Assembly (NCBI GenBank): GCA_030765505.1
Contig: JAVCCL010000001.1
Span: forward strand, 12,306 to 76,305
Origin: Candidatus Kaelpia imicola
Lineage (GTDB): Bacteria; Omnitrophota; Gorgyraeia; Kaelpiales; Kaelpiaceae
DNA length: 64,000 bases
Direction: 5' to 3'
Below the pieces are notes generated by a model. The model saw only the letters and a program-made list of their open reading frames with translations, did not search any database and was not told where the DNA came from. How positions within the stretch are numbered: the stretch's first letter is position 1; each line of letters begins with the position of its first letter. Of the stretch, positions 2,284 through 44,510 are shown piece by piece. Made by a program: the position numbers and the translations under genes.

Positions 2284-3762
2284 TTGGGAAGTCTGTTTAT
2301 CAAAGATAAAATCTGGATTCAATTCTCTATAATCTTTATTCTCGTCTTGATTGTATTTTTCAAAAGCTTGAGCTTTGAATTTAGCTGGCTGGACAATGCT
2401 CAGATTGAGGAAGAAAGCTGTATTATTCAAAGTCAGCAGGAGCTTGAAGACCTGTTATTTCAGCCGCTGCTTAATCCTAAAGGCCAGGGTAATTATTATC
2501 GGCCTCTATTTAAAATTTCGTACACATTGGATTTTTTACTCTACGGGAAAAACCCGCTGGGTTTTCGTATAACCAATATCCTGCTGCATATATTTAATTT
2601 AATATTGCTCTATGTTATTTTATTGAAATTTAAAATAGCTAAAGAGATATCTTTACTATCCACGCTTCTTTATGGTTTTTTGCCACTCAATACCTCAGCA
2701 GTGGTCTGTCTAGGGGCAAGGGCTGACCTGCTGGCTGCCTTCTTTGTTCTATTTGCGTTTCTGTCATATCTGACATTCCAGGAAAAGGGTAAGGCGGTCT
2801 ATTTTATCTGCTCTCTTTTAGGGTATATCTTAGCCTTAATGAGCAAGGAGATTGCCTTTCCATTTTTTTTGGTGATCTTTATCATTGCAAAAGCTAAAAA
2901 TCAGTTCAAGATCTGTAATATCTGGTATCTCTTACTTGCTTCGGGGTATCTGTTTATCAGGTTTAAAATCTTTGGTTATATCGGCAGTAGTCTATCTCTT
3001 TTGCGCGGCGAACCGTTTATAACTATTCTATCTTCTTTTGCAGGGTTTTTTAGGTATCTGTTTAAGTTCTTTATGCCTTTCAACCTTTCTTTAAGCGATG
3101 CTTTTCCAAAATATAGTTCTATCTTTAACTTTGAGGTTATTTTTGGATTAATCTTATTCTTCATGATAGCCCTATTCTTTATCCGTTCTGTAAGAAGAGA
3201 AAACTTAACCCTCTCTCTGTTTTTAGGATGGTTGCTGTTCTTCTATATTCCTATATCGAATATTGTCCCGGCTTTACATTTTTGGGCCGAGAGGTTTTTC
3301 TATCTCCCTGGCATTGGATTGATTGGGGTCGTTGGGTATCTTATCTCAAAGAGAAAAAGTCTTAAAATACCATTGGTAGCGGTTGTTCTATTTTACGGTC
3401 TTTTTAATCTTAAATATCAGGAGTATTTTAAAAATAACGAGCTGCTCTTTAGGAGGGCGATTGATATCTCTACAAAGAGTGAAGAGGCATATAATATGCT
3501 GGGCTATCATCATCTTTTAAATAATGACTATTTCCGGACAATATATTATTATCATTTGGCAACACAGGATTTCAGCGGTTATTATACTTACTCTTCTCTG
3601 GATGAGACCTGTAACAATTTAGGTGTAGTATTCTTGAGATTGAAACAGTATAAAGAGGCTAGAAAATGGTTCCAGTCTGCAGTAGCATTAGATGGAGATG
3701 ACAGTAAGGCTGTTTTAAATTTAAAAATATTGGATTTCATTGAGAGTGCTGATGTTAAATAG
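2284..3762 (+). CDS. TMTC-like GT-C glycosyltransferase (DUF1736 membrane domain + C-terminal TPR), paralog 1
   Basis: The first loop has a WLDN..EEE acidic motif and YRPLFKISYTLDF. It also has NILLHIFNLILLY and GARADLL. C-terminal TPR-like repeats are present. The start is TTG, so the start position is uncertain. Confidence 0.65.
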   Translation: MGSLFIKDKIWIQFSIIFILVLIVFFKSLSFEFSWLDNAQIEEESCIIQSQQELEDLLFQPLLNPKGQGNYYRPLFKISYTLDFLLYGKNPLGFRITNILLHIFNLILLYVILLKFKIAKEISLLSTLLYGFLPLNTSAVVCLGARADLLAAFFVLFAFLSYLTFQEKGKAVYFICSLLGYILALMSKEIAFPFFLVIFIIAKAKNQFKICNIWYLLLASGYLFIRFKIFGYIGSSLSLLRGEPFITILSSFAGFFRYLFKFFMPFNLSLSDAFPKYSSIFNFEVIFGLILFFMIALFFIRSVRRENLTLSLFLGWLLFFYIPISNIVPALHFWAERFFYLPGIGLIGVVGYLISKRKSLKIPLVAVVLFYGLFNLKYQEYFKNNELLFRRAIDISTKSEEAYNMLGYHHLLNNDYFRTIYYYHLATQDFSGYYTYSSLDETCNNLGVVFLRLKQYKEARKWFQSAVALDGDDSKAVLNLKILDFIESADVK

Positions 3763-5212
3763 AGATGATATCCTGCCTTTACTAATAATTGTAGCTGCAG
3801 GACTGATTGTCTATATAGGTATTTTAGATGCCCCCTTTATCTATGATGATATCCACCTTGTATTAAACAATGAGCTGATAACCTCTTTTAAGTATATCCC
3901 CGAGCTTTTTAAGACTATATTCAATTCTGATATCTTGAGATTACCTTTTAGGCCCTTGCAGATTATCTCCTATATGTTTGACTATAAGCTCTGGACTTTT
4001 GACCCTAGAGGCTACCATCTTATCAACGTCTTACTTCACGTATTTAATAGCTTGCTATTATACGGTTTAAGTCTACGATTCTTCAAAAGAAGAAAAGAGG
4101 CTTTCTTAATAGCACTTCTGTTTGTAATTCATCCTCTCAATACTGGTGCGGTAAGCTATATATCTGGTAGAGCCGATCTATTAGCAGGATATTTCTCTTT
4201 TCTATCTCTGATCTTATTTTTCAGGTTCTTGGATAGTCATAAGAATATTGCTCTTATTTTAAGCATGCTGTCTTTTGTAGCTGCAATCTTATCTAAAGAG
4301 ATAGCTTTGATAGTACCTCTATTACTTTTGACCTATGTAGTTATCTTCTATCGCCCTTCTTTGCGTTATCTTATTTGCCATCTGGTTATTGCTGCTATTT
4401 ACATGCTGTTGAGATTGCCGGGTTTTCTAGCCGCTACTTTTTTTAAGCCTACGTTAAGCGGAAGATTTTTAACTGCACCCTATCTATTTTTTAGATATTT
4501 AAAAATAATATTTTTTCCTCACAACCTTAGGCTGTCCTATGCTATCAGTTATATAGATTCACCCAAAGACCCTGCATTTATTCTATACTTTATATTGCTC
4601 TCTTTAGTCGTCTGCCTTGGACTCTATTCAATTAGAAAGAGCAAGAGAATGGTATTTTTCTCTATATGGTATATCCTGAACTTTCTGCTTATATCCGGGG
4701 TAGTAGTTGCATTGAATGCTCCTTGTGCCGAGCATTGGCTCTATCTGGGATTGCCTGCAATATTTGCTTTAATGGTATCGTTAATATATAGTCTCTTTTA
4801 CAGGGGAGCAGTATATAGGTATGCCGGTTATATCTTTATAACAGGTATGCTTATATACTATGGATTTTCAACTCTAGAGCGCAATAAAGAGTGGGGGACT
4901 CCTGAAGATTTTTATAAGAACGAGATTGAACATACCCCGTCTAATTACAAAGCTCATTATAATCTGGGCATAATATATTTTAATGAAGGAAGATATCTGG
5001 ATGCCGAAGAAGAGTTCAAAAAAACTATTACGATATTTCCTGAACTTCACCTGGCCTATTATGGCCTTGCTTTAACTGCTGAAGAGAGAGGAGATATGGA
5101 TGAGGCCATCAGCTGCTATTGTAAGAGCTTGGATATAGCTCCGGAATTTGATCTGGGAAGAGAGAGACTCAAAATTTTAAAAGGGAGCTATCTTGGTGAT
5201 GTTAAAAAATAG
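3740..5212 (+). CDS. TMTC-like GT-C glycosyltransferase (DUF1736 + TPR), paralog 2
   Basis: FIYDDIHLVLNNELI (a DD loop motif), FRPLQIISYMFDY, INVLLHVFNSLLLY and SGRADLL are present. The C-terminus has TPR repeats (AHYNLGIIYFNEGRYLDAEEEF...). Confidence 0.75.
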   Translation: MRVLMLNRDDILPLLIIVAAGLIVYIGILDAPFIYDDIHLVLNNELITSFKYIPELFKTIFNSDILRLPFRPLQIISYMFDYKLWTFDPRGYHLINVLLHVFNSLLLYGLSLRFFKRRKEAFLIALLFVIHPLNTGAVSYISGRADLLAGYFSFLSLILFFRFLDSHKNIALILSMLSFVAAILSKEIALIVPLLLLTYVVIFYRPSLRYLICHLVIAAIYMLLRLPGFLAATFFKPTLSGRFLTAPYLFFRYLKIIFFPHNLRLSYAISYIDSPKDPAFILYFILLSLVVCLGLYSIRKSKRMVFFSIWYILNFLLISGVVVALNAPCAEHWLYLGLPAIFALMVSLIYSLFYRGAVYRYAGYIFITGMLIYYGFSTLERNKEWGTPEDFYKNEIEHTPSNYKAHYNLGIIYFNEGRYLDAEEEFKKTITIFPELHLAYYGLALTAEERGDMDEAISCYCKSLDIAPEFDLGRERLKILKGSYLGDVKK

Positions 5213-7139
5213 ATGGTGCATTCTTTTGCTTTTTTTGATTTTAGGTTTTGGTCTCTATTCAACTTCGTTGAATAATGGATTTATATTTAGCGATCATTAT
5301 TTAATAGGAGAGAATTGTTTGATAAAAAGTTTCTCTTTTACCCCCTATTACTTTCTGGGCTATATATCTCAAGATGTTAAAAAAGCATTCAGGCCTTTAT
5401 TTATGCTTAGCTATAATTTGAGTTATAGCTTATCGAATTATAATGCTTCAGGGTATAGAGCTTTTAATATTCTGCTCCATGTTCTCTCTGCGTTTTTTCT
5501 GTATAGAATATTATGTCTATTCTTTAGAGAGTCTAATTCAAAAATAGCGCTCTTACTATCTATCTTTTTTTTGGTTCATCCCATTAATCTTGACGCGGTA
5601 GTGCATATTATGGCAAGGTCTACTTTGCTTTTCAGTCTCTTTATACTTCTCTCTTTCCATTCTTATCTAAAGTATAGTCTGTCTAAAGCTAAACATCTAT
5701 TCTATCTTTCCATCGTATTTTATCTATTTGCTGCTTTAACCAAAGAGCATTTTGTTTTGTATATTCCAATTTTATTCTCATACATTCTGTTGTTTGATAA
5801 GAGAGGGTTAAAAAAGTTTACCTGTTTGATTTCTTATCTTTTAATCTCAATCTCTGTCTTTATCTATTGGAAAATAATGAGACTGGCTGTTTTTGCAGAA
5901 GCTGCAGTAGATATTCAGTTTAGAACCTGGGGGCTAAATCTTCTGACCCAACTTAAAGCTCTGCTTCTCTTTATAAAGCTTTTCTTTGTCCCGGCAGGAT
6001 TTTCTTTTGATCATCAGAACATAGAGGTTCTATCGTACTTCGATGCGGCAGGCTGGATTACGGTCTCTATTCTTACCGCTTCTTTGATAGTCTTTTTAAG
6101 AACCGATAACAGAATAAAATTTGGAATTCTGTGGGGAGTATCTTTTTATTTTTGGAGATTTTGTATTCAACTGGAATCAATAGCCAGAGAGCGCCATTTC
6201 TATTTAACCCAGATAGGCATTATATTTCTTCTCTATATATTTTTAAGCAGAGTGAAGATTAGAAGATATATTTTAAATCTGCTTCTAGTTATGTTTTTAA
6301 TTGGACTTGGACTAATTACATATTTGAGAAACCCGCTTTATAAAGATGAGCTTATCATATCCTGTGATATTATGGAGTGTTATCCGGATTCTGAGATTGC
6401 TAATTTTCAAATCGGAACATATTTTAAAACGGAAAAAAGATATTCTGCTGCAGAAGAGCGATTTAATCGATTAATATTAAATGCTAGAAATCCCCAGCTT
6501 AAAGCAAAAGCGCTTCTTAGCTTAGCCCAGATAAGAATTGATGAAGCTCGATACGAAGAAGCAGAGGAGATTGCCATAAAGACTTTTAAGGAGTTTCCTT
6601 ATATTAATGACGTTTACAGCTTGCTTGGATTTTTATATTTAAAGAGCGGTAAATCTGGCTTTGAGAGGTTGATTAAAATCTACCCTTACAATGCGAAGCT
6701 TCTGTTCTATGCCGGAGACTATATGTTTAGGAAGGGTAATCTGGATGAGGCCCGCAACTATTTGAACAGATCTTATAATTTAGGTTTAGATTGTCCGGGG
6801 TATTATTTTCTTTTTGGTAGAATAAGCGAGTTTGAGGGTGAGAGAGATGAGGCTATAGATTACTATAAGAAGCTTTTTTCAGTCTACCCTTTTCATAGAG
6901 AAGGGTGTTTCTATTTAGGCTCTCTTTTGGCTCAGAAAGATTCAGAAGAAGCCGATATTTACCTGAAGAGAGCTTTAAAGATTGACTCTTCATTTGCTGC
7001 TTCTTATTACAATTTAGGGTTATATTATCTGAGTCGGGGTAATAGAGATGGGGCGGTTAGGTTGATAAAGAGAGCAGAATCTCTGGGGTATGGTATACCT
7101 CCTGAAGTAGAGGCAGTTATAGCTAAAGGGATATTATGA
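5193..7139 (+). CDS. TMTC-like GT-C glycosyltransferase (DUF1736 + extended TPR array), paralog 3
   Basis: FIFSDHYLIGEN, FRPLFMLSYNLSY, NILLHVLSAFFLY and MARSTLL are present. There are at least six C-terminal TPR units. Confidence 0.75.
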   Translation: MVMLKNRWCILLLFLILGFGLYSTSLNNGFIFSDHYLIGENCLIKSFSFTPYYFLGYISQDVKKAFRPLFMLSYNLSYSLSNYNASGYRAFNILLHVLSAFFLYRILCLFFRESNSKIALLLSIFFLVHPINLDAVVHIMARSTLLFSLFILLSFHSYLKYSLSKAKHLFYLSIVFYLFAALTKEHFVLYIPILFSYILLFDKRGLKKFTCLISYLLISISVFIYWKIMRLAVFAEAAVDIQFRTWGLNLLTQLKALLLFIKLFFVPAGFSFDHQNIEVLSYFDAAGWITVSILTASLIVFLRTDNRIKFGILWGVSFYFWRFCIQLESIARERHFYLTQIGIIFLLYIFLSRVKIRRYILNLLLVMFLIGLGLITYLRNPLYKDELIISCDIMECYPDSEIANFQIGTYFKTEKRYSAAEERFNRLILNARNPQLKAKALLSLAQIRIDEARYEEAEEIAIKTFKEFPYINDVYSLLGFLYLKSGKSGFERLIKIYPYNAKLLFYAGDYMFRKGNLDEARNYLNRSYNLGLDCPGYYFLFGRISEFEGERDEAIDYYKKLFSVYPFHREGCFYLGSLLAQKDSEEADIYLKRALKIDSSFAASYYNLGLYYLSRGNRDGAVRLIKRAESLGYGIPPEVEAVIAKGIL

Positions 7140-7230
7140 AAACCTTGCTCTTAAATCCGCTTCTCAGAGAGAGGCTCGGCTCTAAATACGAAAGATATTA
7201 TATAAGGTCTGAATTCCGAAAAGAATCTCT

Positions 7231-8742
7231 ATGTTTAAATTTAAAAAAATAAGAACATATCATCTTATCATTCTTCTCAGTATTCTCTTTTGGTGTTTTG
7301 CATTGAGTAATATAAGTATTGATTTTTCGGAAACAGGTGGCGATAGTGCGCAGTATCTTATTCTTGCCAAAAGCATTTTGAGCGGTTGCGGGTATCGTGC
7401 TTTAAACCTGCCTGGTGAACCCCTTTTTGATCACTATCCGCCGGTCTTCCCGACTTTTCTTTCTTTTATTATAGCTATTTTTGGTCTTAATTATCAGGTT
7501 ATCTATATTTTTATTGCGATTGTGGGGTATATTAGCCTCATTTTAACATACTATTTGATGAGGAATTATTTAGACAGGAGAGGTTCTCTTCTAATATGCC
7601 TTTTAACAGCTTCAAACCTCTTCTTTTTTATTTATATAACTATGCATATATTGACCGAAGCGCTATATCTTTTTTTATCTCTTTTAAGTTTTTTATTAAT
7701 TTTGAAGTACTTTAGTTTTTACGATAAAAAGAGATATATTGTTTTAATACTATCTTTTATTTCAATTATTCTTAGTTATTTTACACGCTATATAGGTATC
7801 AGTCTTTTTTTAGCTGTCATTCTATTTCTTATTAAAACAGAACGTGATTATAAAGCAGCATTAAACCTCTCGGTTTTATTTTTTATATTTTTTCTTATCT
7901 GGAGATTTATCCCTTCGAGCTTGGATATTAACAGCAGCTATATTACAGGGCAGTTTTGGCTAATAGACCCCTACAAACCTTTCTTGGGCAGCATATTTAC
8001 GGATCCGGGCACATTTATTTTAAGAATTATAGAAGGAGTTAATATATATTGTAGGGATATAGCAGTTATTATTATTCCTCTCATAGGTTTAAAAAATTAT
8101 TCCATTTTCAATTTTATATGGTTATCTGTAGTATTGTTTATTCTATTTGGATTATGTTCAAGTTTTAAGGATAAGAAAAAGCCTATATTTAACTACTATT
8201 TTATTATCTATATGGTTATTTTAGTTGTCTGGCCCTATAGAGAGACTTATAGGTTTCTTATGCCGATAATTCCTTTTCTCTATTATTATTTCATAAAAGG
8301 TGTAACTAAGGCCTTGTTTTTTATTAAAATTAAATATACCTCTTCCATCCTTTGCCTTATATTGGTTGTGGTTTTACTGATAAATATAACCAGCGATTTT
8401 TTTATAATTCCAGATCTGACTAAAATATCGGAAGCAAAAAAGGAGTTCATAGCTCTTCATGATTGGATAAATGATAATATAGTAAACGATAAGATAATAC
8501 TATCACGTAAGCCGACCGTGAGTTATTTACTTACAAAGCACAAGTCGTTAATATTTCCCTATAGTAAAGATTCAAACGATATCTGGAATAGGGTTGTTGA
8601 AGAAGAGATAGGCTATATAGTAGTAGATAATTTCTCACCGCAGACCCGTATATATCTAGGGCCGTTTCTATATCAGTTTAAAGATAAAATAAAACTTATT
8701 TATATGAAAGGTGAATCTGGAGTCTTTGAGGTGCTGCGTTGA
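7231..8742 (+). CDS. GT-C family polytopic membrane glycosyltransferase-like protein
   Basis: About 12 predicted TM helices. The N-terminal loop GGDSAQYLILAKSILSGCGY is paralogous to the 52093..53535 protein (DSPRYITTADSIASGNGY). Confidence 0.5.
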   Translation: MFKFKKIRTYHLIILLSILFWCFALSNISIDFSETGGDSAQYLILAKSILSGCGYRALNLPGEPLFDHYPPVFPTFLSFIIAIFGLNYQVIYIFIAIVGYISLILTYYLMRNYLDRRGSLLICLLTASNLFFFIYITMHILTEALYLFLSLLSFLLILKYFSFYDKKRYIVLILSFISIILSYFTRYIGISLFLAVILFLIKTERDYKAALNLSVLFFIFFLIWRFIPSSLDINSSYITGQFWLIDPYKPFLGSIFTDPGTFILRIIEGVNIYCRDIAVIIIPLIGLKNYSIFNFIWLSVVLFILFGLCSSFKDKKKPIFNYYFIIYMVILVVWPYRETYRFLMPIIPFLYYYFIKGVTKALFFIKIKYTSSILCLILVVVLLINITSDFFIIPDLTKISEAKKEFIALHDWINDNIVNDKIILSRKPTVSYLLTKHKSLIFPYSKDSNDIWNRVVEEEIGYIVVDNFSPQTRIYLGPFLYQFKDKIKLIYMKGESGVFEVLR

Positions 8743-10166
8743 TGGATAGAAGAGAGAGGGGATATCTTGCTCTCGTTGTATTAATAGCTCTCGGATTGAG
8801 GTTGTATTATATCTGTCAGCCTATGCGTTACGATGAGGCATTTGGATTTTTATTCTTTTTCTCTCAGCCGCTGTCGTTTTCGTTGTCACATTATATTGCA
8901 CCCAACAATCACCTTCTCTATAATCTCTTTGCTCACCCTCTATATGTTTTACTAGGGGATTCTGAATGGGTTATGCGTATACCTTCTTTTCTCTTTGGAC
9001 TTCTATTAATTCCTGCAGGTTATTATTTGATATCATCTTTGTTTAATAAAGAGTCTGGCTTGCTCTCTGCCGTACTCCTTGCAACTTCATCTCTCCTTAT
9101 AGAGTATTCTACTAATGCCAGAGGCTATACTCTCTATCTGTTGCTGGCTATTGTTTTTTTCTATTCTATAGAGCTTATATTTAAAAAGCAGAAAGGGGGT
9201 TGGGTATATTTTATACTCTCGGCAACCTTGGGTCTATATACTATTCCGGTTATGGTTTACCCTATTATAGTAGGATTATTTTGGTTTTTGACCAGGATTA
9301 TTCAAGATAGATTTAAAAAACATAAAATTAAAATGTTGATTATTTCAATGATAATTGTATCGTTGCTAAGTTTAGGGTTATATCTTCCGGTTATTCTGCA
9401 ATCTGGACTGGCTTCTATTTTTGCAAATAGATTTGTTAGTCTCGGATGCTCTTTTGGTTTTATAGAGGATTTGCCCCGATATTTATCTAATCTTTGGTCA
9501 AGCTGGATGAGGGATTTTCCTGGCTGGGATAGATTGGCATTAGTTCTAGCGTTATTTGTGGGAACTGTAGGGTCAAAAGAGTTAAGGAAAAAATATATCT
9601 CTATTCTAATACCGTCCGTTTTAGCTATAATGAGCATATTATTTTTAAGCAGAAAGATTCCTCCTCAGAGAGTCTTTATGTTTCTAATTCCGTTATATTT
9701 TGGAGCTGTCTCTTCGGCTTTAGTCTATATTTTTAAATGTGATTTTAAAAAAGTATTGTTCAGAATAATAGTTATATCGATTACCTTATTTCTCTCTTTT
9801 GCGGTTATTAAGGAGGGTGCTGTTATTAAGAGCGAAGAGACAGGGACTTTGAGCGGAGCAGAAGATCTGGTTTTATTTTTAAAAGGACGACTTAAAGAGG
9901 GTGACAATGTGTTATGTTTTATGCCTGTAGACTTTATTCTTGCCTATTATTTTAACCATTATAGTATCTCTTGGAGTTATCTGGGGGCAGATTTGAAGAC
10001 AACAGAGAGAGTCTTTATTGTTTTAAAAAAAGGGCAGGATTTAAGCTCTTTATTGGAGAAAAATAATCTCCCTAGTTTTTTAAATAACAGCAAATATATA
10101 ACGTCATTTAAAGATGCGAATCTCTATAGTTATTTGGATTTTAAATCGACTTTGTTACAATTTTGA
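8739..10166 (+). CDS. GT-C (PMT_2/ArnT-like) membrane glycosyltransferase
   Basis: The N-terminal periplasmic-loop motif PMRYDEAFGF is like the ArnT/PMT DE..Y motif. The protein is multi-TM. Confidence 0.55.
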   Translation: MMDRRERGYLALVVLIALGLRLYYICQPMRYDEAFGFLFFFSQPLSFSLSHYIAPNNHLLYNLFAHPLYVLLGDSEWVMRIPSFLFGLLLIPAGYYLISSLFNKESGLLSAVLLATSSLLIEYSTNARGYTLYLLLAIVFFYSIELIFKKQKGGWVYFILSATLGLYTIPVMVYPIIVGLFWFLTRIIQDRFKKHKIKMLIISMIIVSLLSLGLYLPVILQSGLASIFANRFVSLGCSFGFIEDLPRYLSNLWSSWMRDFPGWDRLALVLALFVGTVGSKELRKKYISILIPSVLAIMSILFLSRKIPPQRVFMFLIPLYFGAVSSALVYIFKCDFKKVLFRIIVISITLFLSFAVIKEGAVIKSEETGTLSGAEDLVLFLKGRLKEGDNVLCFMPVDFILAYYFNHYSISWSYLGADLKTTERVFIVLKKGQDLSSLLEKNNLPSFLNNSKYITSFKDANLYSYLDFKSTLLQF

Positions 10167-13887: not shown

Positions 13888-14298
13888 ATGTAGGTATTTA
13901 ATATAAAAATGTAACACCAATATGATAATGTCATCTAGTCAAATTAGAAATGGCACCTTGTAAAGGTGCTATAATCGTTCCTTTCAGGGCGCTGTGCTAA
14001 GTCTACTAAAACAACCTCTCGAATTGGTATATTTTTCCAGGTTTTTGGCTATCTACATAACGCCTGTTTATAGATCTATGATTCAGAAAGGATATTATAT
14101 CTGATATTTGCATGGGAAGCCATCTATTTTGCTCGGAAATGACGAGCAATAAATCAATAGATTAATAGCGATAATTTATAAAAGGAATTTCTTGTAACCA
14201 GAGAGGAAAAGTATGAGCCTTTTTCGAAGATGTTCAAAACAAGGAATTAAGGTCAAGCAGGGTTAACGAGAGTTAAGATTATAGTTCGAGTTATTTTT

Positions 14299-14307
14299 GG
14301 GGGGGGG
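14299..14307. repeat. G9 homopolymer tract 38 nt downstream of the minus-strand radical SAM gene
   Basis: Nine consecutive G in a genome of ~35% GC. Confidence 0.8.
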
Positions 14308-14344
14308 CATTCTTTTTGTCTTAAAGTTTTCTTCTAAATACAAT

Positions 14345-15825
14345 TTATAGATGTACTTTTCTTTTAAATATAGGATATTTTCTTTGTAAATAGACCATTG
14401 TCTGCAATATGTAATAAATAGGGACAATAATTAGTATTGAAAATTTGTAAAATCTTTTGCTAATAAGTATTTCTTTAAAAGTTTTTGTTAATTTAATATA
14501 TCCGGCTAAGAAATACATAAAACTCCAATAACAATAGTTTTTATTGCTGTTTAACTTAATTAATAATCCGAATTTTTTTAAGGCTTTTTTTGAAATATCT
14601 TCAACATCTTTTCGGGTAATTAGATTATTTTTTAAATGCCTAACTGTTATTTCACAGTTAGGAAAATATAATAAAGATGAAACAGACAACGCTAACGGAT
14701 GAGGCAGTTTTAAAATAAGCTCAAATGACTTTTTCATGTCATTATTGGTTTCTTCGGGATTTCCTATGATGAAATCGTAGTTTACAAATATTTTATGTTT
14801 ATTAAATAAATTAGCGGCTTCTATTATTTGTTTATTTGTTCCATATCTATTGTAACTTTCTTTACGAATTCTCTCTGAGCCACTCTGTATGCCCAAAGTA
14901 ACTTTCTTTATTCCTGCTTCATGTAGTTTATTTACAATATCCTCATTAACGGTTGATGCTTGAGAGTAGCAAAAAGCTGGAAGGTTTACCCTTTTTTTGT
15001 ATTCATCTGTAAATGCTTGCAACCAATTAAGATCTATTGTAAAAACATCATCCCAAAATTCGACATATTGGAACTGGTATATTTTTTTTGCTATTTCTAA
15101 TTCTTGAATGATATTTTCTACGGTTCTGCGTCTGATAGAGGCATTTTTATATTTAAGTTGATTGTTACAACAGAAAGAGCAAGAAAATGGGCAGTCTAAA
15201 GATGACATGATGTGATATTTTTTGTTTATATGATTATTATAATTTGTATAGTAGATTTTATTGTTGTCTATAAATAATTTATTGTCATCACTATAGTCAG
15301 CAAAAGGTATTGTATCTAAATCTTTTATTAGAAAATTTGTTTTATTTTTGATGATGTGCGTTTTGTCTTTGATCCAAATATTAGGTATTGTGACATCATG
15401 CCAATCTTCAGTTATTGACTTGACCAATTTTGGCAATGAAATATAGCCCTCTCCTATGTTTATTATATCAGCATATTTTATGCAGTCCTCTGGGTTCATG
15501 GTAGGATGTATCCCCCCCCCCAAACAATTTTTATATCCATCTTTTGTTTAATTGTTATAGTAATTTGTTTTGCAATATCAGCGATGGTTGAAAATACGCT
15601 TATACAAAGTAAATCAGGTTGTATTTTACTTATCGAACTATAAAGTAATTCGTATTCTTTTTTAGAGGGCAATCTGTTTTTAAGATAACTGTATGTTTTA
15701 AAAAATATGGTAGTAGTGTCTACATTTTGTTTTTTAAGTATCTGTTGAAATTGCCTTATTGCTATTGAAGTATACTTGTATGAATATAAACTTAGTAGCA
15801 CAACTTTTAATTCAGGTTTTTTCAT
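14345..15825 (-). pseudogene. B12-binding radical SAM enzyme split into two ORFs by a G10 tract
   Basis: ORF 15825..15496 is a cobalamin-binding-type N-terminal domain ending ...KIVWGGGYILP*. ORF 15523..14345 starts TTG-GGGGGGGGG and carries CPFSCSFCCNNQ (CxxxCxxC). The two frames overlap on the G10 run at 15512-15521. Adding one G or removing two fuses them into a ~495-aa protein. Confidence 0.7.
15512..15521. repeat. C10 (plus strand) / G10 (coding strand) homopolymer inside the radical SAM gene
   Basis: Counted directly: ten C at 15512-15521. Confidence 0.85.
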
Positions 15826-16112
15826 ATCTAAAAGTATTTTGCTTTATGGATGTAATGTATGCAAGTTAATAATTGTATCTTCAATATTATAAAGGGGAAA
15901 GGCCGTATTTAATAAACCTCCGTTTTTCACTTGGAGCAACAATGATGCGACCTTTGATTTTCTTGTGCAGGATCTGGTTTTCCACTTTGAGGTATTCTGT
16001 CTGTTTGATTAACCGGCTGTATACCGGATGCCCCAGAAGCAGCAAAAATTCTTTAATATAAAACTTTAATATAAAACTTGTAAAAAACAACCAGTTTAAC
16101 TAATATTTTTAT

Positions 16113-16610
16113 ATGCGGCAAAACAAGGCCTTTACTTTGATTGAGCTTATAATTCTTATCACAATCTTAGGTTTTGTAGTACTGATATCTGTGCCTAATA
16201 TTGATTCTTATTTGGATGCCAGGATATATTCCTGTGCTCAGAAGATAAGTTCTGACATAAGATATACTCAGTATCTCTCTATCGCAGAGCATGAGAGCTA
16301 TGGCTTGGAGTTCAATGCTGCGGCTAATTATTATCGAGTCTATGAGGTTGATACAGGCAATCCGGCTACAGATCCTTATAGCCGGGCTAATATGGAATTA
16401 GATTTGGATACAACAGGGGAGTATAAAGGGGTTAGCATTAGTTCTGTAAATATAGATGCTTCAAATGAGTTAAGGTTTTCATCTTTGGGTGAGCCTTTGG
16501 ATTCATCCGGTAATGATTTATCGGCAGTAGGCACGATAGCTTTAAATTATAGGGGCAGGTCTAAAACAATTATGATATATCCTGTAACAGGGTGGGTGGA
16601 GGTTCAGTGA
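16113..16610 (+). CDS. Pseudopilin (GspH-like) with a prepilin N-terminal domain
   Basis: MRQNKA|FTLIELIILITILGFVVLISVP. Confidence 0.7.
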   Translation: MRQNKAFTLIELIILITILGFVVLISVPNIDSYLDARIYSCAQKISSDIRYTQYLSIAEHESYGLEFNAAANYYRVYEVDTGNPATDPYSRANMELDLDTTGEYKGVSISSVNIDASNELRFSSLGEPLDSSGNDLSAVGTIALNYRGRSKTIMIYPVTGWVEVQ

Positions 16611-17092
16611 AAGGTCTAACTCTTATAGAGATAATAATCTCAATAGTGGTCTTTGTCCTTATTGCAATTCCTCTTATGAATATATTTGCTACTGTTTCTC
16701 GGGATACCGATGTTGGTATCTATATTAATCGCGCTTCTAGCATGGCTGCATCTTGTATGGAGTTGATCTTAAGTAGATCCTTTGACGAAGAGTCTTCCTC
16801 TCCATTTACAAATCCTGTTGACCTCGGGCCAGATAGCGGTGAGATTACATTGACTGATTATGATGATGTGGATGATTTTGACGACTACTCTTTTACAGAT
16901 TCAGACTATCCCGGCATTACAACCACTGTATCTGTTTATTATGTGGATAATCCTGATTCCTCAGCTGATTGGGATAATACAGCTGCAGCTGCAACAGATT
17001 ATAAGAGGATAGATATATCGGCTGCTCATGCTCAACTTGGTACTGTAACTCTATCTAACGGAGTTAGTTATGCAGGGCATAATACGAAATAA
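16607..17092 (+). CDS. Pseudopilin (GspI-like)
   Basis: The GTG at 16607 is preceded by GGAGGT, giving MKGLTLIEIIISIVVFVLIAIPL. A GTGA overlap joins it to the upstream gene. Confidence 0.65.
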   Translation: MKGLTLIEIIISIVVFVLIAIPLMNIFATVSRDTDVGIYINRASSMAASCMELILSRSFDEESSSPFTNPVDLGPDSGEITLTDYDDVDDFDDYSFTDSDYPGITTTVSVYYVDNPDSSADWDNTAAAATDYKRIDISAAHAQLGTVTLSNGVSYAGHNTK

Positions 17093-17600
17093 AAAGTCAT
17101 TTACAATAATAGAGATAGTAATGGTCATCGTTCTTGTAGGAGTCTTCTCTTACGGTGTCTCACTCTATGTACTTAGAGTAGTTGATTCTTGGAAATTTTT
17201 AACTCAGAGATATGAACTGGAGCAGGATTCTAAATTAGCACTTGATTTTATGAGCCGGGATTTAAAAGAGATAGATATAGACTCATCATCCAATCCTACC
17301 ATAAGTTCTGCAAAAGATGATGCTGTAACCTTTACAAATACTGGTGCAGAAAGCATTGTCTATACATATAGCAGTAACGTTATCTATAAAAACTCTCAAC
17401 CCTTAACGAAGAATATAAGTAGTTTCGAGATAAAGTATTATAATCAGAGCAATGTTGAACTTGTTCCTGCTGCTGGGGTCCTATCTGCTGCACAGATTAA
17501 AGATATCTGGTATCTATACTTAAGATTCAGCGCTTCCAAGGGTGATCAGAGCAGTCTTTATAACTCTTATATTTTTCCGAGAAACTTTTTATCCAGATGA
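17070..17600 (+). CDS. Pseudopilin (GspJ-like)
   Basis: KKS|FTIIEIVMVIVLVGVF is a prepilin motif. Confidence 0.65.
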   Translation: MQGIIRNKKSFTIIEIVMVIVLVGVFSYGVSLYVLRVVDSWKFLTQRYELEQDSKLALDFMSRDLKEIDIDSSSNPTISSAKDDAVTFTNTGAESIVYTYSSNVIYKNSQPLTKNISSFEIKYYNQSNVELVPAAGVLSAAQIKDIWYLYLRFSASKGDQSSLYNSYIFPRNFLSR

Positions 17601-17929
17601 ATAATTTAATTAAAAAAGATGGGTTGGCTCTTCTCTTGGTAATCTTTGTAATGATGCTATTTTCTATTTTTGGAATGATGCTTGCCTCTATTTTTGCTAA
17701 TAGAACTGAAGTAGCAAAAGGGTTTTACCGCATGGCTCAGACTATGTTTGTAAATGATATGGGAATTGAGAGGGCAAAGCAGAAACTCTATGATGATTGG
17801 AGCTATAGGACGGCAGGCTTAAATGAAAGCGTAGATATAGCGGGACTTAATAGCAGTTATACAATCATAATTGCTGGAGCTTCTGGAGATCCGGTTGAGA
17901 TAAGCGTTGAAAGTGAAATATTGGATTAG
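17597..17929 (+). CDS. Minor pilin (GspK/PilX-like, short)
   Basis: N-terminal GLALLLVIFVMMLFSIFGMMLASIF. It is translationally coupled to the upstream gene. Confidence 0.45.
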   Translation: MNNLIKKDGLALLLVIFVMMLFSIFGMMLASIFANRTEVAKGFYRMAQTMFVNDMGIERAKQKLYDDWSYRTAGLNESVDIAGLNSSYTIIIAGASGDPVEISVESEILD

Positions 17930-18954: not shown

Positions 18955-20442
18955 GTGAAAACAATAGGCCTTGTTTTAATCTCTGCATCTATCCTCTTTT
19001 TTTTCCTGGGTCATCTCTCTTTGATAGATCCCGACGAGGGCCGTTATGCAGAGTCTGCCCGAGAGATGATGAATTCCAATCAATATCTTATTCCTCTTCT
19101 TAACTCAGCTCCGCGGATTAATAAGCCGATACTTTTCTACTGGACGATTGTAGCATCTTATAAAATATTCGGTGTTAATGAGTTTGCAGCTCGTTTTCCC
19201 TCGGCTTTGTCAGGTTTGGGTCTCATTTTGGGACTATACTTGTTTGTAAAAGAAGAGAAAAAAGAGAAGAGGTCTTTTATCCCGATGTTGGTATTATTAA
19301 GCTCGCCTGCTTTCTTAATAAGTTCGCGTATCGCTATAACAGATATGCTTTTTACGACTTTTATTATTTTTTCTATCTTCACTTTTTGGCTTGGCTTGGG
19401 TAATAAGAAGTTTATATTTTTGTCTTTTATCTTTGCCGGGCTATCCTTGGCTACTAAAGGTCCGGCAGGGGTGCTGTTAATTTTTCTCTCTATCTTACTA
19501 TTCTCTATTATTGAAAGAGATAGGTCTTATTTCAAAAGGCTCTTCAATCCCTGGGGAATTATGATTATGCTTTTGATAGGGGGAGGATGGTATTTGATGC
19601 TTTTCTTTAAAATAGGCCAAGCCGATTTTTTTGAGCTTATAAGAGAAGAGACATTAGGGAGGTTTCAAGAGGGTTTTGTGCATAGAGAGCCTTTCTACTA
19701 TTATATTCCTTTGATATTTGCAGGTTTTATACCTTGGTCTTTCTTTTTTTTCAGGTTAAGAAAATCTGATTTATCAACAAGATTGAATAGATTTTTAATC
19801 TGTTATGTTTTTGTAGCAGTTCTGTTTTTCAGTCTCTGCAAAAGTAAACTTCCAACCTATATTCTATCTATCTTCCCGCTATTAGCCATAGTGCTTGGCG
19901 ATAGTATAGAGAGGGCTTGGGAGAAAAGGACAAAAGCGGGATTGTTTTTCTTTTTCACGTTGACAGCTGTTAGCTTGGCTCTTAGATTCATCCCCCCGAA
20001 TTTTATAGATGTCGGGGTAAGTCTGTCTTTCTACAGCATAGCTTTGATAATCTTTCTCATAGCCGTCCCTCTATTGATGCTGTATAAAAAAAAGCTTAAG
20101 ATCCAGTTTCTATACCTTTTTCTATCCCCTGTTCTGATATACTTTTATCTCTTGCTATCTTACGGAGATGCATTCTCTAATTACCGCTCGACTGAGAGTC
20201 TCTTTAGAGAGAGAGATTTAAATGCTGAGACTATATATACTTGGAAATTCTTTAAACCCAGCATTCTCTTTTATTCCAAGTCTAAAGTGAAGGAGATAGA
20301 AGGAATAGAGGATTTTAAAGGTAACTATATTATAACCCCTAAGAAAGAGCTCTCTTTTTTGAAGGAGAGATTGCCCTCTTTTGAGATAATATCCGAGACA
20401 GATAAATATTATTTGGTTAAGGTACAAAAGTTACAAAAATAG
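18955..20442 (+). CDS. ArnT-like GT83/GT39 polyprenol-P-sugar-dependent glycosyltransferase
   Basis: DPDEGRYAESAREMM is the canonical ArnT/PMT_2 loop motif. About 12 TM helices. The start is GTG. Confidence 0.8.
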   Translation: MKTIGLVLISASILFFFLGHLSLIDPDEGRYAESAREMMNSNQYLIPLLNSAPRINKPILFYWTIVASYKIFGVNEFAARFPSALSGLGLILGLYLFVKEEKKEKRSFIPMLVLLSSPAFLISSRIAITDMLFTTFIIFSIFTFWLGLGNKKFIFLSFIFAGLSLATKGPAGVLLIFLSILLFSIIERDRSYFKRLFNPWGIMIMLLIGGGWYLMLFFKIGQADFFELIREETLGRFQEGFVHREPFYYYIPLIFAGFIPWSFFFFRLRKSDLSTRLNRFLICYVFVAVLFFSLCKSKLPTYILSIFPLLAIVLGDSIERAWEKRTKAGLFFFFTLTAVSLALRFIPPNFIDVGVSLSFYSIALIIFLIAVPLLMLYKKKLKIQFLYLFLSPVLIYFYLLLSYGDAFSNYRSTESLFRERDLNAETIYTWKFFKPSILFYSKSKVKEIEGIEDFKGNYIITPKKELSFLKERLPSFEIISETDKYYLVKVQKLQK

Positions 20443-39356: not shown

Positions 39357-39557
39357 TTATTTATTATCGTAGAATAGAGTCTCCCTGTCGGATAGTCTGC
39401 CTTTTTCTATTAGCTCATCTATTAAAGTTTGTCTAACAGTATCTTTTTCATTTTCATAATAGCTTCTCGTAGCTGTTTTTAAATTAGAGAGTATGGATAA
39501 AAATATTAACAGAGATGTTATTAAGACCGATATTTTTAAAAAACTATCTTTTTTCAT
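39357..39557 (-). CDS. Possible small membrane-anchored protein downstream of the giant fusion gene
   Basis: Internal ATG giving MKKDSFLKISVLITSLLIFLSILSNL... (66 aa). It is largely 3' of the stop of the 1161-aa ORF. The call is weak. Confidence 0.2.
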   Translation of the reverse strand: MKKDSFLKISVLITSLLIFLSILSNLKTATRSYYENEKDTVRQTLIDELIEKGRLSDRETLFYDNK

Positions 39558-42500
39558 AACACTCAATCTTACACTGTATGCATTCTGGGTCTTTAGAGTT
39601 ATTATTTTGTAATTCACAATAGCTGAATCTTTTTTTAAATATTTTATTAAATAACGAGATTTTATTAAACATTGATAGTAATGCTCCAACAACACAGAAA
39701 TATCTGCACCAGAATCTCGGTATAAATAGCGAGAAGAGCAACGCTATATATAATAATAAACTATTAAATCCAGGTTTTGAGAATATTGAAGTTAATCGAG
39801 ATAGTGGCTCTTGTTGAAAAATATAATTATTCTTTGTTATAGAGAATAATATTATTACTATTGAGAGTAGAATATATTTTATATACCTGATCTTATTATC
39901 TAGCTCTTTAGAAGGTTTGACTTCTATTTTTTTTATGTTTAACAACTTCTGCAAAGCTCCAAAAGGGCAAAGAAATCCACAATATATCCTTCCGTATATT
40001 AATGCTAATATAAAAGGCATAAAAGTTATGGTCCAAAGAGAGAGGTTTTTGATAGAGGGTAAATTTAGATTTAATATATTAAATATATGAAATAGAGATA
40101 GCTGTAACTGTAATATTAATCCCAATATTATTACAACCAGCAACTGGTATAATATCTCTATCTTTGAGTTTAGACTTCTATGGAAGATATAGAGACCAGT
40201 CAGTATAAAAAGTATAAATATAATACTTTTAAGTATTTCAGTTAAAGGTGGTGTTAAATCTATTTGAGGCTCTTTTTCAATAAAATCTTTTGATATCTTT
40301 TGAGCGGTTTTCTTGACCGTTTCAATTATAGCTTTTGATGTATAGGTTGCAGAGGTCACAGCATCTATATCGTTTATTCTATAAAGCTCTGTTAATAATC
40401 TACCTTTAAAGCTATTAAGCCAGGGTTCTACTCTTTTTAAATAACTGGGCGTCTCTTTAGGATCAATTATTTTTAAATCTATTATCCTGTAATTACTATC
40501 TGTTCTGATCTCTATATCAACCAATCCAGCAAAACCTTTAGATGATACACCTAATTCTCTGGAATTAAATATGTGGTATCTCTTCTCTTCTCTTTTTTCT
40601 TGGATTCTAATAGAGGTTGCTACTCTATTGTCTTCTGCAATGTAAGGTCTGCTTTTGATGTAGCTTGACCCTATTAACACTAATAGAGATATTCCAAATA
40701 GGAAATAGGATGTCTTTATATAAGGGAAAGATAATCTACCTAAACTGAATATACGTTTTTTTAATATTCTAGCGTTTGTTCCCAGTTTAATCAGCAATAA
40801 GATAACAAAGGTTAAAATGCTTAAGAAGAGCAGTGTTTTAGATATGCCCAGAAGAGGTATCAATATTATTCCTGTTATAGTTGAACCGATTGCCGCACCC
40901 CAGTGATCTAGCGATTGAAGTATACCTGCTAAACTAAGTAAACTCAGTTGCTTGTTTTCTAAAACCCTGGCTGTCAATGGGTAGGATGCCCCAGTTAGTA
41001 TGCCTGAGAATAGAAAGAGAGATGAAAATATCGGTATAGATAGTTGATAGGAGAGGTTATTTATTACCTCTTTGAATAGATAAAAACTAAATAGATATAT
41101 CAGCAGTTGTATTGATAGTATCAATATTATAATTTTAAATGGCTCTGTCTTATCAACAATTTTTTTAATAGAGAGACTGCCTATCGCCAGCCCCAACATA
41201 AAGAGGCTGCTTAATAACCCTATATAGATATATATGGTTCCGAAGATGTTCTGGAATAGAAATAGCAATACTATATGATAGATAAAAGCAGAAGACCCAG
41301 AAAAAAGCTGGTAGAGTTTAGCATTAAATACGGCTTCTACTTGAGGTTCGTTAGCTATAAATTTAAGGTAGTGTACTCTTAAGATAAAAAATATTAAAAT
41401 TGCTATAAAGAATAAAGGGAATCCGTATATAAACAGTAATTTCATTGTTTGAGTAATTTTTAAACCGCTATATTCTGTAAAGACCAATAGATTTAGAAAA
41501 TAAGATAAAGGTTTTTTGTCCGAATTGATTAAAAGATTATAAGTACTATTTTGATAGCTATCTTTTATAAATTGTACCCGGTCTTTATCTATAAGGCTAT
41601 AGAAGCTCTCAGGAGAGAAGGTATAGTCATCTGGAATATATATCAGCCCTCTCCTGTAGAGTTCATCGGCTGATTGAGTGATATTAGAATTTCTTGAGCC
41701 TGCAAAAAACCATAAATTATCTCCTGGGATGAGCACAATCTTTTTAAATTCCGTTTGCAGGGTATGGTAGATTGAAGAGCCATAATTCTTTAGCTCCTTT
41801 GATAGAAAGTTCTCAGCAGAAGTTATCTTTACTGCAACGCCACCGTTATTTTTAAGGTTATCTTTAAGCAATCTGTAAAACTCTTCTGTATAGAGTTTAT
41901 TTGCATAGGCGCTTGATGGTTCAGGTTCGTTGATTATTATAAGGTCATATCTCTCTTTATGTTCTTTGATGTAGTTTCTGGGGTCTTTGAAGATAAACTT
42001 AACTTTTTCTTCTTTAAATATTCTCTCTATCTCAGGTGGAGCGTGTCTTTTTATAAAGTCAAAATAGTCGCTATCTTTATATACATTGACTATCTTTTTA
42101 ATATTAAAATCTAAGAGAGACTCTATCTGATTTTCAAAACCTTCGCCCAGTATCAGAATATCTTCAGGCATATCTAACATTGCAATAAAGAGGCTTACAC
42201 TCTCTTGGGATGATATCTTATCAGGTAAGGTTTGGATTGCCTCTCCGTTTGACAGGAGTATTATTTTCTCTTTGTATCTACCGATGCTTATCTGTTGATA
42301 GGGAGTATCGATTGTTTCGATTAATTCTGCATCTGGAATAATCTGTTTAAAGCGTATATCGTTAAGATACTTTTCAAGAGGTTTTTGATAGATAAATAGT
42401 AGAGAGAATAATATCAAAGATAGAGAAGATAGAATTTTATTTGTTTTAGTTTTTCTATAGATACTTTCAAAGCTCGTTATAATAGCAAAAAGAAGACAGC

Positions 42501-43029
42501 AAGTTATTAAAATTATTGTTGCGGGGAATAGATTTATCAGAAGTAACGTTATTAAGATTCCGGCTATTACACTGCCCAGAGATTCAAATATATAGGCATC
42601 TGAGATTATGTTTTTAGATGATTTTTTATGGTTTTTTAATAGTTGGCAGCCGGATGTAAATAAGATACCTGTGAATAAAGCTAGAGGTCCATTAAATAGG
42701 ATGCTTAAGGGTATGGCTTTCTGGAGTGGAAATAACTCCCAAGCTTCTATAGATGCAAGGGGTTTAAAGAAACGAAAGAGCAGGAATTGAAAGATTGCAA
42801 GAAAAGGGTAGAGCTTCAGTAGTTTAGGAAACAGTTTTGATATTTTTTGATATTTTCTTGTTAAAGTTGCTCCAATCGCAATCCATAGAAACCAGGAAGC
42901 GTAAAATATTCCTATTGAGAGCTCATTTCCGTTAAATGATACCAGGTATTCTCTTAAGAGTATTGTCTGCAAAAGGATTGTGAATGCTCCGAGTGCAAAA
43001 AAGATGATTTTATAGATACTTTTTTTCAT
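39544..43029 (-). CDS. 1161-aa multidomain membrane protein: N-terminal TM bundle, spermidine-synthase-like domain, second TM bundle, FMN_bind domain, NapH/NosR-like polyferredoxin TM domain
   Basis: The PABS-like region is ILILGEGFENQ...YDLIIINEPEPSSAYANKLYTEEFYRLLKDNLKNNGGVAV. The FMN_bind motif is IDAVTSATYTSKAI. The NapH-type motifs are RIYCGFLCPFGALQ and FWCRYFCVVGALL. The C-terminus has C-x10-C-x2-C-x3-C. Confidence 0.75.
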   Translation of the reverse strand: MKKSIYKIIFFALGAFTILLQTILLREYLVSFNGNELSIGIFYASWFLWIAIGATLTRKYQKISKLFPKLLKLYPFLAIFQFLLFRFFKPLASIEAWELFPLQKAIPLSILFNGPLALFTGILFTSGCQLLKNHKKSSKNIISDAYIFESLGSVIAGILITLLLINLFPATIILITCCLLFAIITSFESIYRKTKTNKILSSLSLILFSLLFIYQKPLEKYLNDIRFKQIIPDAELIETIDTPYQQISIGRYKEKIILLSNGEAIQTLPDKISSQESVSLFIAMLDMPEDILILGEGFENQIESLLDFNIKKIVNVYKDSDYFDFIKRHAPPEIERIFKEEKVKFIFKDPRNYIKEHKERYDLIIINEPEPSSAYANKLYTEEFYRLLKDNLKNNGGVAVKITSAENFLSKELKNYGSSIYHTLQTEFKKIVLIPGDNLWFFAGSRNSNITQSADELYRRGLIYIPDDYTFSPESFYSLIDKDRVQFIKDSYQNSTYNLLINSDKKPLSYFLNLLVFTEYSGLKITQTMKLLFIYGFPLFFIAILIFFILRVHYLKFIANEPQVEAVFNAKLYQLFSGSSAFIYHIVLLFLFQNIFGTIYIYIGLLSSLFMLGLAIGSLSIKKIVDKTEPFKIIILILSIQLLIYLFSFYLFKEVINNLSYQLSIPIFSSLFLFSGILTGASYPLTARVLENKQLSLLSLAGILQSLDHWGAAIGSTITGIILIPLLGISKTLLFLSILTFVILLLIKLGTNARILKKRIFSLGRLSFPYIKTSYFLFGISLLVLIGSSYIKSRPYIAEDNRVATSIRIQEKREEKRYHIFNSRELGVSSKGFAGLVDIEIRTDSNYRIIDLKIIDPKETPSYLKRVEPWLNSFKGRLLTELYRINDIDAVTSATYTSKAIIETVKKTAQKISKDFIEKEPQIDLTPPLTEILKSIIFILFILTGLYIFHRSLNSKIEILYQLLVVIILGLILQLQLSLFHIFNILNLNLPSIKNLSLWTITFMPFILALIYGRIYCGFLCPFGALQKLLNIKKIEVKPSKELDNKIRYIKYILLSIVIILFSITKNNYIFQQEPLSRLTSIFSKPGFNSLLLYIALLFSLFIPRFWCRYFCVVGALLSMFNKISLFNKIFKKRFSYCELQNNNSKDPECIQCKIECYEKR

Positions 43030-44510
43030 TCTTCGGAGAAGACCTCAGCTTGAAATACTTCAAAGCTTGTACCTTCTTTATAGGCGTGGGGTGAGAGCCC
43101 AGCTTTATAGGAGAGATGAGAGAGGGTGGTATCTAAGTCCCAGCCTTGTTCTGGTGCAACTTGAGGCAAGAAGACTGCGCCTCTTGAACCTTTCTTTAAT
43201 AATATCCCATCTCTACCTATTACTATATCTTTGTAATCATCTATTTTCCGGGGCGGTGTTAGGGCAGATATCTCTATCTCGATTTTATCCAATTCCCCTG
43301 CTGTAACTTGAGTAAATCTAAAGTCATTGACTGCTGCATCAATTGTTCTTTCAATTACGACTTGATATAGATGTTTTCTTGGAAGTATCTCGCCAATACA
43401 ACCTCTGAGCTGCCCTTTTTTGTGCAAGGTTACAAATGCCCCGCGGTTCTTTTTGAGGTTCTCTGTCAGTTTAATTCCTAGATCCTCTATCTTTGGAATC
43501 TTTTTCTCTCTGATATAACTCTCCAAGACTGCGCGGGATAGTTTAAGTAAAGATTTCTTCTCCTCTTCTGTCAATCTGTTTTCTGGTATGCCTTCATTTA
43601 GATCAGAATTGTTATTGTAAAACCCTATAGTTACATAGCTTATAGAGGTTGAGAAATCACCGGTCATCTCACCCAAAGTGTCATAGCGTATAACTCTTGC
43701 TTTAGTATCTTTAGGTAACATTGAGAGTAATATTGCTATCGGGATACGTCCGCATATAGTTGCCTGGGTCTTCTGGATATATTTTAGAAAGCCATTATGA
43801 TCTAAGTTTTCTATTTTCTCTATAGCTCCATAGTCCAACCTTCTTATATTCTCTTTTATATTGTCATTAAACGGAACATAATCGTAGCGATAGCCGTAAT
43901 GAGTGAAATCAGAACTTATTATAAATATTGAATCTCCAGAGACATAATTTTTTAATATCTCTGCTGCCTTCTCTACTCTTTCTATGTTTAACTGTCCTAC
44001 TACTATAGGGATTATTTTAAAGTCTGAGAGAATGACCTGTAGAAAAGGAATTTGTAACTCTATACTGTTCTCATTATAAAAAGCCTCATCAGTTGCTTGG
44101 AATATTTCTGTTTCAAGTAGCTCTTCTTTAATTTTTTTATCTATCTCTATTTTGCCCAGAGGTGTTTTAAAATAATCGCTTTGAGGCAGTATAAGTTTAT
44201 CTGTATGTAATCTATGAGATGGGCCAAGTATAAATACATATTTAATTTCTCTAGATAACAGTTCTTTGTATCCATAAGCAGCTGTCTGTCCAGACCAAGC
44301 TAGACCTGCATGAGGTTCTATTAATGCAATAGGCCTCTCGCAAGGCGTGGTCTCTACTTTATCTAAGAAAGAGTAAACCATATCTTTGAGTTCATTTGGT
44401 TCCTCAGGATACCAGCCGTGACAGCTGGCATTTAATGTCTTTGCATCTGTTTCTTTTGACATGGTATTTACCCCCAGTAATAATATTAGGATTATAAATA
44501 TCTTCTTCAT
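43026..44510 (-). CDS. AmmeMemoRadiSam system fusion protein: Memo-like (protein B) + AMMECR1 (protein A), with an N-terminal signal or anchor sequence
   Basis: The Memo region is HGWYPEEPNEL...LIEPHAGLAWSG...ILGPSH. The AMMECR1 region is GAFVTLHKKGQLRGCIGEI. The N-terminus MKKIFIILILLLGVNTMS is hydrophobic. There is a 4-nt overlap with the downstream giant ORF. Confidence 0.8.
   Translation of the reverse strand: MKKIFIILILLLGVNTMSKETDAKTLNASCHGWYPEEPNELKDMVYSFLDKVETTPCERPIALIEPHAGLAWSGQTAAYGYKELLSREIKYVFILGPSHRLHTDKLILPQSDYFKTPLGKIEIDKKIKEELLETEIFQATDEAFYNENSIELQIPFLQVILSDFKIIPIVVGQLNIERVEKAAEILKNYVSGDSIFIISSDFTHYGYRYDYVPFNDNIKENIRRLDYGAIEKIENLDHNGFLKYIQKTQATICGRIPIAILLSMLPKDTKARVIRYDTLGEMTGDFSTSISYVTIGFYNNNSDLNEGIPENRLTEEEKKSLLKLSRAVLESYIREKKIPKIEDLGIKLTENLKKNRGAFVTLHKKGQLRGCIGEILPRKHLYQVVIERTIDAAVNDFRFTQVTAGELDKIEIEISALTPPRKIDDYKDIVIGRDGILLKKGSRGAVFLPQVAPEQGWDLDTTLSHLSYKAGLSPHAYKEGTSFEVFQAEVFSEE

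Follow-up and report, generated by a model that had tools for sequence, protein, structure and literature searches.

A radical SAM gene that is broken, in its assembled form, at a run of ten G raises the question of whether it is a switchable gene caught in its OFF state, a gene that has recently died, or an intact gene whose tract was miscalled. Open reading frames, tract editing and Pfam together define it as a complete gene for a cobalamin-dependent (class B) radical SAM enzyme, with a frameshift in the allele that was assembled, at 14345..15825 on the minus strand of the 64,000-nt stretch of DNA that was analyzed as a whole and is here called the window. The source of the window is MAG 3300035698_1655 of Candidatus Kaelpia imicola (Omnitrophota), which was recovered from Ace Lake in Antarctica. 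Slipped-strand ON/OFF switching, a kind of regulation already familiar from Campylobacter, is plausibly the most likely reading of this locus, and we give about an even chance to the tract being real, slipping and caught in the OFF state.

The frame break and the two tracts

The ORF list divides the gene into two parts on the minus strand. ORF A (15825..15496, 109 aa, end ...IVWGGGYILP*) holds the first ~105 residues of the B12-binding domain, followed by four out-of-frame residues (YILP) and a TGA stop. ORF B (15523..14345, 392 aa) starts at a TTG within the tract, holds the remainder of the B12 domain together with the radical SAM core (CPFSCSFC) and ends with the TAA stop of the gene at 14347-14345. 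The two meet inside the tract, which by sequence reading and homopolymer census is C10 on the plus strand, G10 on the coding (minus) strand, at 15512-15521; this bears out the sequence-only reading, which had placed the change of frame exactly at these ten G. When the tract was edited in silico, G8 gave a single ORF of 492 aa and G11 a single ORF of 493 aa, and G9, G10 and G12 led to a stop after 109-119 codons. The earlier proposal that either G8 or G11 would yield one enzyme of ~495 aa was right about the fusion, but the size is 492 or 493 aa. The tract is situated in the first fifth of the gene and, as expected of a contingency gene, inside the reading frame, so that non-triplet changes of its length switch translation.

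NCBI annotates only a 384-aa 'radical SAM protein' (MDP8215719.1) from the ATG at 15499, which lies 12 nt downstream of the end of the poly-G and overlaps the TGA stop of ORF A in an ATGA (15496..15499, minus strand, read from the sequence). ORF A carries no NCBI annotation, and its protein has no exact match in the public collection. The genes on either side have consecutive accession numbers, which means that the frameshift went unflagged in the public record. Neither the frameshift nor the B12 domain at the N-terminus can be seen in the public annotation. Looked up as exact sequences, the proteins of ORF A and of both neighbors and the 384-aa product gave no contig on record, and the proteins of the neighboring genes are singletons, each known from one record, that of this assembly. 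In the JGI metagenomes a protein-pattern scan found no close relative, and the homologs from an alignment-based rescan were all at most 37% identical.

A second tract, G9 on the plus strand and C9 on the coding (minus) strand, is found by the same reading and census at 14299-14307, 1.2 kb away. In the whole 64 kb, with a G+C content of 35.7%, these two are the only G/C runs longer than six, just as the sequence-only reading had stated; the next longest are five runs of six, there is none of seven or eight, and the G10 is the longest homopolymer of any kind. A first-order model of the window predicts 0.059 G-runs of at least nine and 0.0019 C-runs of at least ten, and the pair of tracts is not explained by chance. 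Both tracts have the hypermutable length (at least 7-8) of G/C homopolymers in contingency genes and are, as in such genes, longer and more frequent than composition predicts. Codon usage is in line with this: GGG accounts for 15.9% of Gly codons in the other 56 ORFs of the window, and GGG-GGG is used in none of its 58 other Gly-Gly pairs.

The C9 tract begins 38 nt beyond the TAA of the radical SAM gene (37 nt lie between), in the spacer of two convergent genes and downstream of both. No plus-strand ORF of at least 20 aa crosses it, and the sole listed ORF that does, a 54-aa minus-strand ORF with a TTG start (14263..14427) overlapping the end of the radical SAM gene, was judged spurious. There is no Rfam match at the tract, and the nearest promoter-like match (14316-14344, plus strand) is no better than in shuffled sequence. 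A consensus scan, which assigned no strand, gave one terminator-like hairpin in the convergent spacer, GCACCTTGTAAAGGTGC at 13953..13969; if the minus-strand gene uses it, the C9 tract would be part of the 3' UTR. The tract had been called a second slippage-prone site, which is true of its position and its chemistry, but neither an ORF nor a recognizable promoter is present there as a target.

The fused protein, its motif and its ortholog

The domains and the predicted fold of the fused protein place it among the cobalamin-dependent (class B) radical SAM enzymes. The B12-binding domain (PF02310, residues 16-130) runs continuously across the tract and reaches 33 bits (cut-off 32.1), and the Radical_SAM domain (PF04055, residues 210-370) reaches 72 bits (cut-off 29.5). 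The protein thus has the N-terminal B12-binding domain and, within the Radical_SAM domain, the CxxxCxxC cluster motif (CPFSCSFC, residues 211-218) that define the class, and the Cys residues are invariant in the homolog alignment. No named NCBIfam subfamily (BchE, HpnJ, PhpK, MgmA and others) was reached: the best score was 96.7 bits where 251 are required, and all the others fell far short of their cut-offs. The 492-aa G8 form was modeled with AlphaFold from an alignment of 42 sequences, and the model has a mean pLDDT of 89 and a pTM of 0.87. With Foldseek it matches every solved B12-radical SAM enzyme over both domains, with E-values from 1e-21 to 1e-15 and 416-507 alignment columns; the best PDB matches are MgmA (9ccb), TsrM (6wte), TokK (7kdx), AprD4 (6fd2), CysS (9n1b) and OxsB (5ul2). 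The model shares with the solved enzymes an N-terminal Rossmann-type B12 domain followed by the CxxxCxxC radical SAM barrel, although sequence identity to them is just 13-18%.

The G10 tract covers the end of a Trp codon (TGG) and the Gly-Gly codons of a conserved GGxHxT motif (residues 102-104), and encodes the end of strand 99-103 of the model, in a block with a pLDDT of 94. Of the 20 homologs aligned with the protein, 19 cover the site, and each of these has exactly two Gly, many of them as W-GG-I/V-H-P-T, which shows G8 (TGG GGG GGG ATA, W-G-G-I-H) to be the canonical and ancestral in-frame (ON) length. G11 is also in frame and adds a third Gly to the two-Gly motif. Seen from the G10 of the assembly, G11 is a single step away and the canonical G8 two. 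Lengths above G8 need insertions and cannot be reached by choice of codons, which implies at least one indel at the tract after its formation. A functional split enzyme was considered and rejected as unlikely, since the frame breaks within the Rossmann fold, where strand 99-103 ends, and the 384-aa product would be without the conserved I-H-P-T.

The genome collection contains one ortholog only, on contig CAZAPE010000022.1 of a MAG labelled uncultured Planctomycetia (locus L006), with 68% protein and 73% DNA identity. The dN/dS against it is 0.13 for the gene as a whole, 0.155 for the part upstream of the tract and 0.13 for the part downstream, at a dS near saturation (~1.6). This shows the gene to have been under long-term purifying selection on both sides of the tract. 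No other stop or frameshift was seen in the 1.48-kb gene, and the fused protein aligns end to end with its homologs. Low dN/dS on both sides together with the lack of a further lesion suggests that the frameshift is either recent or reversible.

At the site of the tract the ortholog reads TGGGGCGGC (TGG GGC GGC) and has no homopolymer, so the tract is lineage-specific. Comparison with related loci, which the sequence-only reading had put forward as a check, counts against conservation: in addition to the ortholog, no run longer than G6 was seen at GGxHxT among 58 homologous motifs in 86 loci, so that in this respect the locus departs from contingency genes with tracts at the same site in homologs. 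The ortholog also has a run of ten N (2273-2282 of its locus) which begins 3 nt past the W-G-G codons, at the site homologous to the G10, and its ORF is open and in frame across this run. The run is either a scaffold gap or masking, so the assembly of this independent MAG may have had a problem at the corresponding place.

Genomic surroundings

The radical SAM gene is the sole minus-strand gene within a plus-strand block of ~38 kb (1403-39353) and occupies the stretch with the lowest G+C content of the window (29%). It is surrounded by genes for GT2, GT9, six PMT_2 GT-C paralogs, a SAM methyltransferase and a radical SAM/SPASM protein, as well as by prepilin-type genes at 16113-17929, and these glycan/pilin neighbors are all on the opposite strand. 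The ortholog has FloA on one side and DsbD/AhpC-type genes on the other, does not belong to a glycan locus and shows no homology to the window in its flanks. Since its neighborhood is unrelated, the link of the gene to the glycan/pilin locus is one of position only. The earlier description of the gene as antisense to, and embedded in, a surface glycan/pilin locus thus stands for the neighbors and the orientation, but the embedding does not extend to the ortholog. The gene looks like a movable accessory gene, which its isolated minus-strand position and its low G+C content fit.

Directly upstream, on the minus strand, there is a 67-aa ORF (15887-16090), which we took to resemble the N-terminus of a transposase; this reading was dropped, as the ORF has no Pfam or NCBIfam match, no database homolog and no local match. 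The spacers on the two sides of the gene, 457 nt at 13888-14344 and 287 nt at 15826-16112, contain no Rfam family and no meaningful repeats marking the ends of an island, and show no similarity to any other sequence retrieved.

Two other features of the window were observed along the way. Seven ORFs (at 2284-10166, 18955-20442 and 52093-53535), five of them in tandem, form one family of membrane proteins of ~480-650 aa. Six of them have a PMT_2 (ArnT/PMT-like GT-C) match and three have C-terminal TPR repeats; the ORF at 5193-7139 has TPR matches only. In a minus-strand block of three ORFs at 39544-45707 the first is a 1161-aa fusion of spermine/spermidine synthase, FMN-binding and 4Fe-4S parts. 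The other two are a Memo-AMMECR1 fusion and a gene of the radical SAM superfamily (the AmmeMemoRadiSam trio). A candidate second frameshift at 39357-39695 / 39544-43029 was rejected, because the overlapping 112-aa ORF has no family match and appears spurious.

A switch and its alternatives

In Campylobacter, G/C tracts of at least seven are called phase-variable; their lengths peak at 9 (53%) and 10 (26%), and 77% lie within ORFs, of which 5% have poly-C and not poly-G on the coding strand (PMC6321876). Radical SAM genes are among those concerned. The core phasome of C. fetus includes two with G(9-10), CFT03427_1545 and CFT03427_1558 (PhasomeIt, PMC6321876), and in C. jejuni HS:19 a radical SAM gene, an anaerobic sulphatase-maturating enzyme, bears a G/C tract (PMC8743553). 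The Kaelpia gene resembles the Campylobacter poly-G genes in its intragenic coding-strand poly-G within the 9-10 range, in the low G+C content of its genome and in having the frameshift as its sole lesion, and it shares with the two C. fetus genes the superfamily and neighbors that encode methyltransferases and sugar-modifying proteins. It differs in that length variation is documented between Campylobacter isolates, whereas here it is inferred from one consensus, and in that Campylobacter has tens of tracts per genome, against two in the 64 kb of the window. The Kaelpia tract furthermore lies on a conserved motif of a cofactor domain, in an uncultured omnitrophote of an anoxic lake. Homopolymeric tracts are also described as reversible gene inactivators, for example the poly(A) of inlA in L. 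monocytogenes (Orsi et al. 2010, PMC2831843), where a 5'-proximal homopolymer likewise leads to a truncated product and insertion or deletion to reversion; those are A/T tracts with measured reversion rates, while the Kaelpia tract is known from its sequence alone. For the intergenic G9 (14299-14307) an analogy may be sought in the tpr genes of Treponema pallidum, whose transcription is tuned by promoter or intergenic poly-G according to Giacani 2007 as cited in PMC8743553, but the G9 is downstream of both genes. Our literature search found no paper that links Omnitrophota with phase variation.

The switch could have arisen in a few steps. From an ortholog-like TGG GGC GGC, two synonymous GGC-to-GGG changes would give TGGGGGGGG (G8, in frame), and replication slippage would then have altered the length of the tract. 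The assembled G10 allele would be OFF, with a 109-aa fragment as its product at most, and a gain of one base (G11, with an extra Gly) or a loss of two (G8, canonical) would restore the enzyme of 492/493 aa. On the level of the population the outcome would be a stochastic, heritable and reversible ON/OFF switch of the simple-sequence-repeat type. We infer that slippage occurs at a useful rate in Ca. Kaelpia imicola and that both states coexist, and presumably the enzyme modifies a surface structure.

The arrangement that the sequence-only reading had called typical of slipped-strand switching is there in so far as a single lesion sits at a coding-strand G10 of the Campylobacter type. Switching is favored by tracts far above the lengths that composition predicts, by the indel which must have followed the formation of the tract, since G10 is out of reach of codon choice, and by the absence of GGG-GGG from the other 58 Gly-Gly pairs. 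The frameshift is the sole defect of a protein that aligns with its homologs, has both domains and is confidently folded, and dN/dS is low on both sides of the tract. The reading frame is kept at eleven A8/T8 runs in ORFs, a 5'-proximal coding-strand G-run of length ten fits the profile of the Campylobacter phasome, and the lone minus-strand, lowest-G+C gene suits an accessory function. Against it, the locus is found in one assembly only, with its neighbors' proteins in one record, and the tract is absent from the ortholog and from the 58 homologous motifs (longest G6). The canonical ON length is reached from G10 only in two steps, and the ON length within one step (G11) adds a Gly to a two-Gly motif. 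Two tracts in 64 kb are few in comparison with classic phase-varying genomes, the position of the ortholog outside any glycan locus leaves the surface role as one of position, and 454 reads are among the pooled data (PMC7416419).

The broken frame could also be attributed to a recent pseudogene, in which a real tract slipped out of frame in a one-way loss of an accessory gene that has no adaptive reversibility. We regard this as rather unlikely, although an isolated antisense, low-G+C insertion between the glycan block and the pilin genes is what such a loss might leave behind, the ortholog stands in a different context, and G10 is two steps off the canonical G8. The window is without other long tracts, and the NCBI record is already that of a truncated product. 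A decaying gene, however, sits poorly with 1.48 kb free of any second lesion and with similarly low dN/dS in both halves, and as G10 is mechanistically reversible, one consensus cannot separate 'dead' from 'OFF'. It is unlikely, too, that the length was simply miscalled and that the true tract is in frame, most simply as G11, so that the gene would be intact and still carry a long tract. The MAG originates from a MEGAHIT co-assembly of 120 metagenomes (PMC8542988), and the Ace Lake data are mostly Illumina, with Sanger and 454 for the 2006/07 samples, 454 being error-prone at homopolymers (PMC7416419); the G10, as the longest homopolymer of the window, is the site most exposed to such error. 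But Illumina makes up the bulk of the data, and relative to the canonical G8 the error would have to be +2. Moreover, the eleven A8/T8 runs inside long ORFs of the 64 kb all leave their reading frames intact, from which it follows that the assembly is not generally full of homopolymer indels, and no further split genes were seen among the window ORFs inspected. If the frameshift is a miscall or the gene is dead, the finding is an ordinary one; in any case MAG consensus sequences conceal the state of homopolymer tracts.

The remaining two explanations leave the G10 in place and look for a different use of it. The full-length enzyme might be made from the G10 template by recoding, either through -1 ribosomal frameshifting on G GGG GGG or through RNA polymerase slippage. 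Homopolymers are known slippage sites, and a -1 shift on this one would read W-G-G-G-I-H and join both ORFs. Transcriptional slippage is documented chiefly for A/T runs, though, no stimulatory structure was seen in the 3' flank, where folding is no more stable than in shuffled sequence (MFE -25 kcal/mol, z = 0.29), and the ORF of the ortholog is open across its gap without a slippery run. Of the slippery heptamer and conserved downstream structure that mark a programmed -1 frameshift, G GGG GGG alone is present, and we consider recoding very improbable. Still more far-fetched is a device of both tracts, in which a 1.2-kb inversion via 15-nt inverted repeats, or a long-range G10:C9 duplex in the mRNA, would make expression of the enzyme depend on both tract lengths rather than on a simple frameshift. 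It would be a type of switch undescribed among contingency loci. The sole long G/C runs do bracket the radical SAM core, and they lie in a 15-nt inverted repeat that is 93% complementary, 14296-14310 (TTTG9CAT) against 15510-15524 (TTTG10AT, that is, ATC10AAA on the other strand). Many G-runs of the window have a T-rich 5' flank, however, and the match of the flanks may be due to chance. An inversion would merely truncate the gene, no recombinase was seen among the ORFs scanned (part of those in the window), and the ortholog has no homologous flank.

Slipped-strand switching, should the tract indeed occur in mixed lengths, would extend simple-sequence-repeat phase variation, so far known mainly from host-adapted pathogens, to uncultured Omnitrophota of an Antarctic lake, whether free-living or host-associated. 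A modification that depends on a cobalamin-dependent radical SAM enzyme would then be kept switchable by the population, with defense against phage or grazers or a saving of B12 as conceivable benefits. That long G tracts might be enriched in B12-radical SAM genes in general was also considered and dropped, because two of the nine G/C runs of at least eight across 582 kb of homologous loci are located in the homolog gene itself, which is about what gene length would lead one to expect. Both of these are in frame and belong to distant homologs: one, on a contig with 32% G+C (L080), has a G8 on the same GG motif at 1131-1138 (TTG GGG GGG GCG), and the other (L030) has a G10 at 6318-6327, encoding S-G-G-G-E near the C-terminus.
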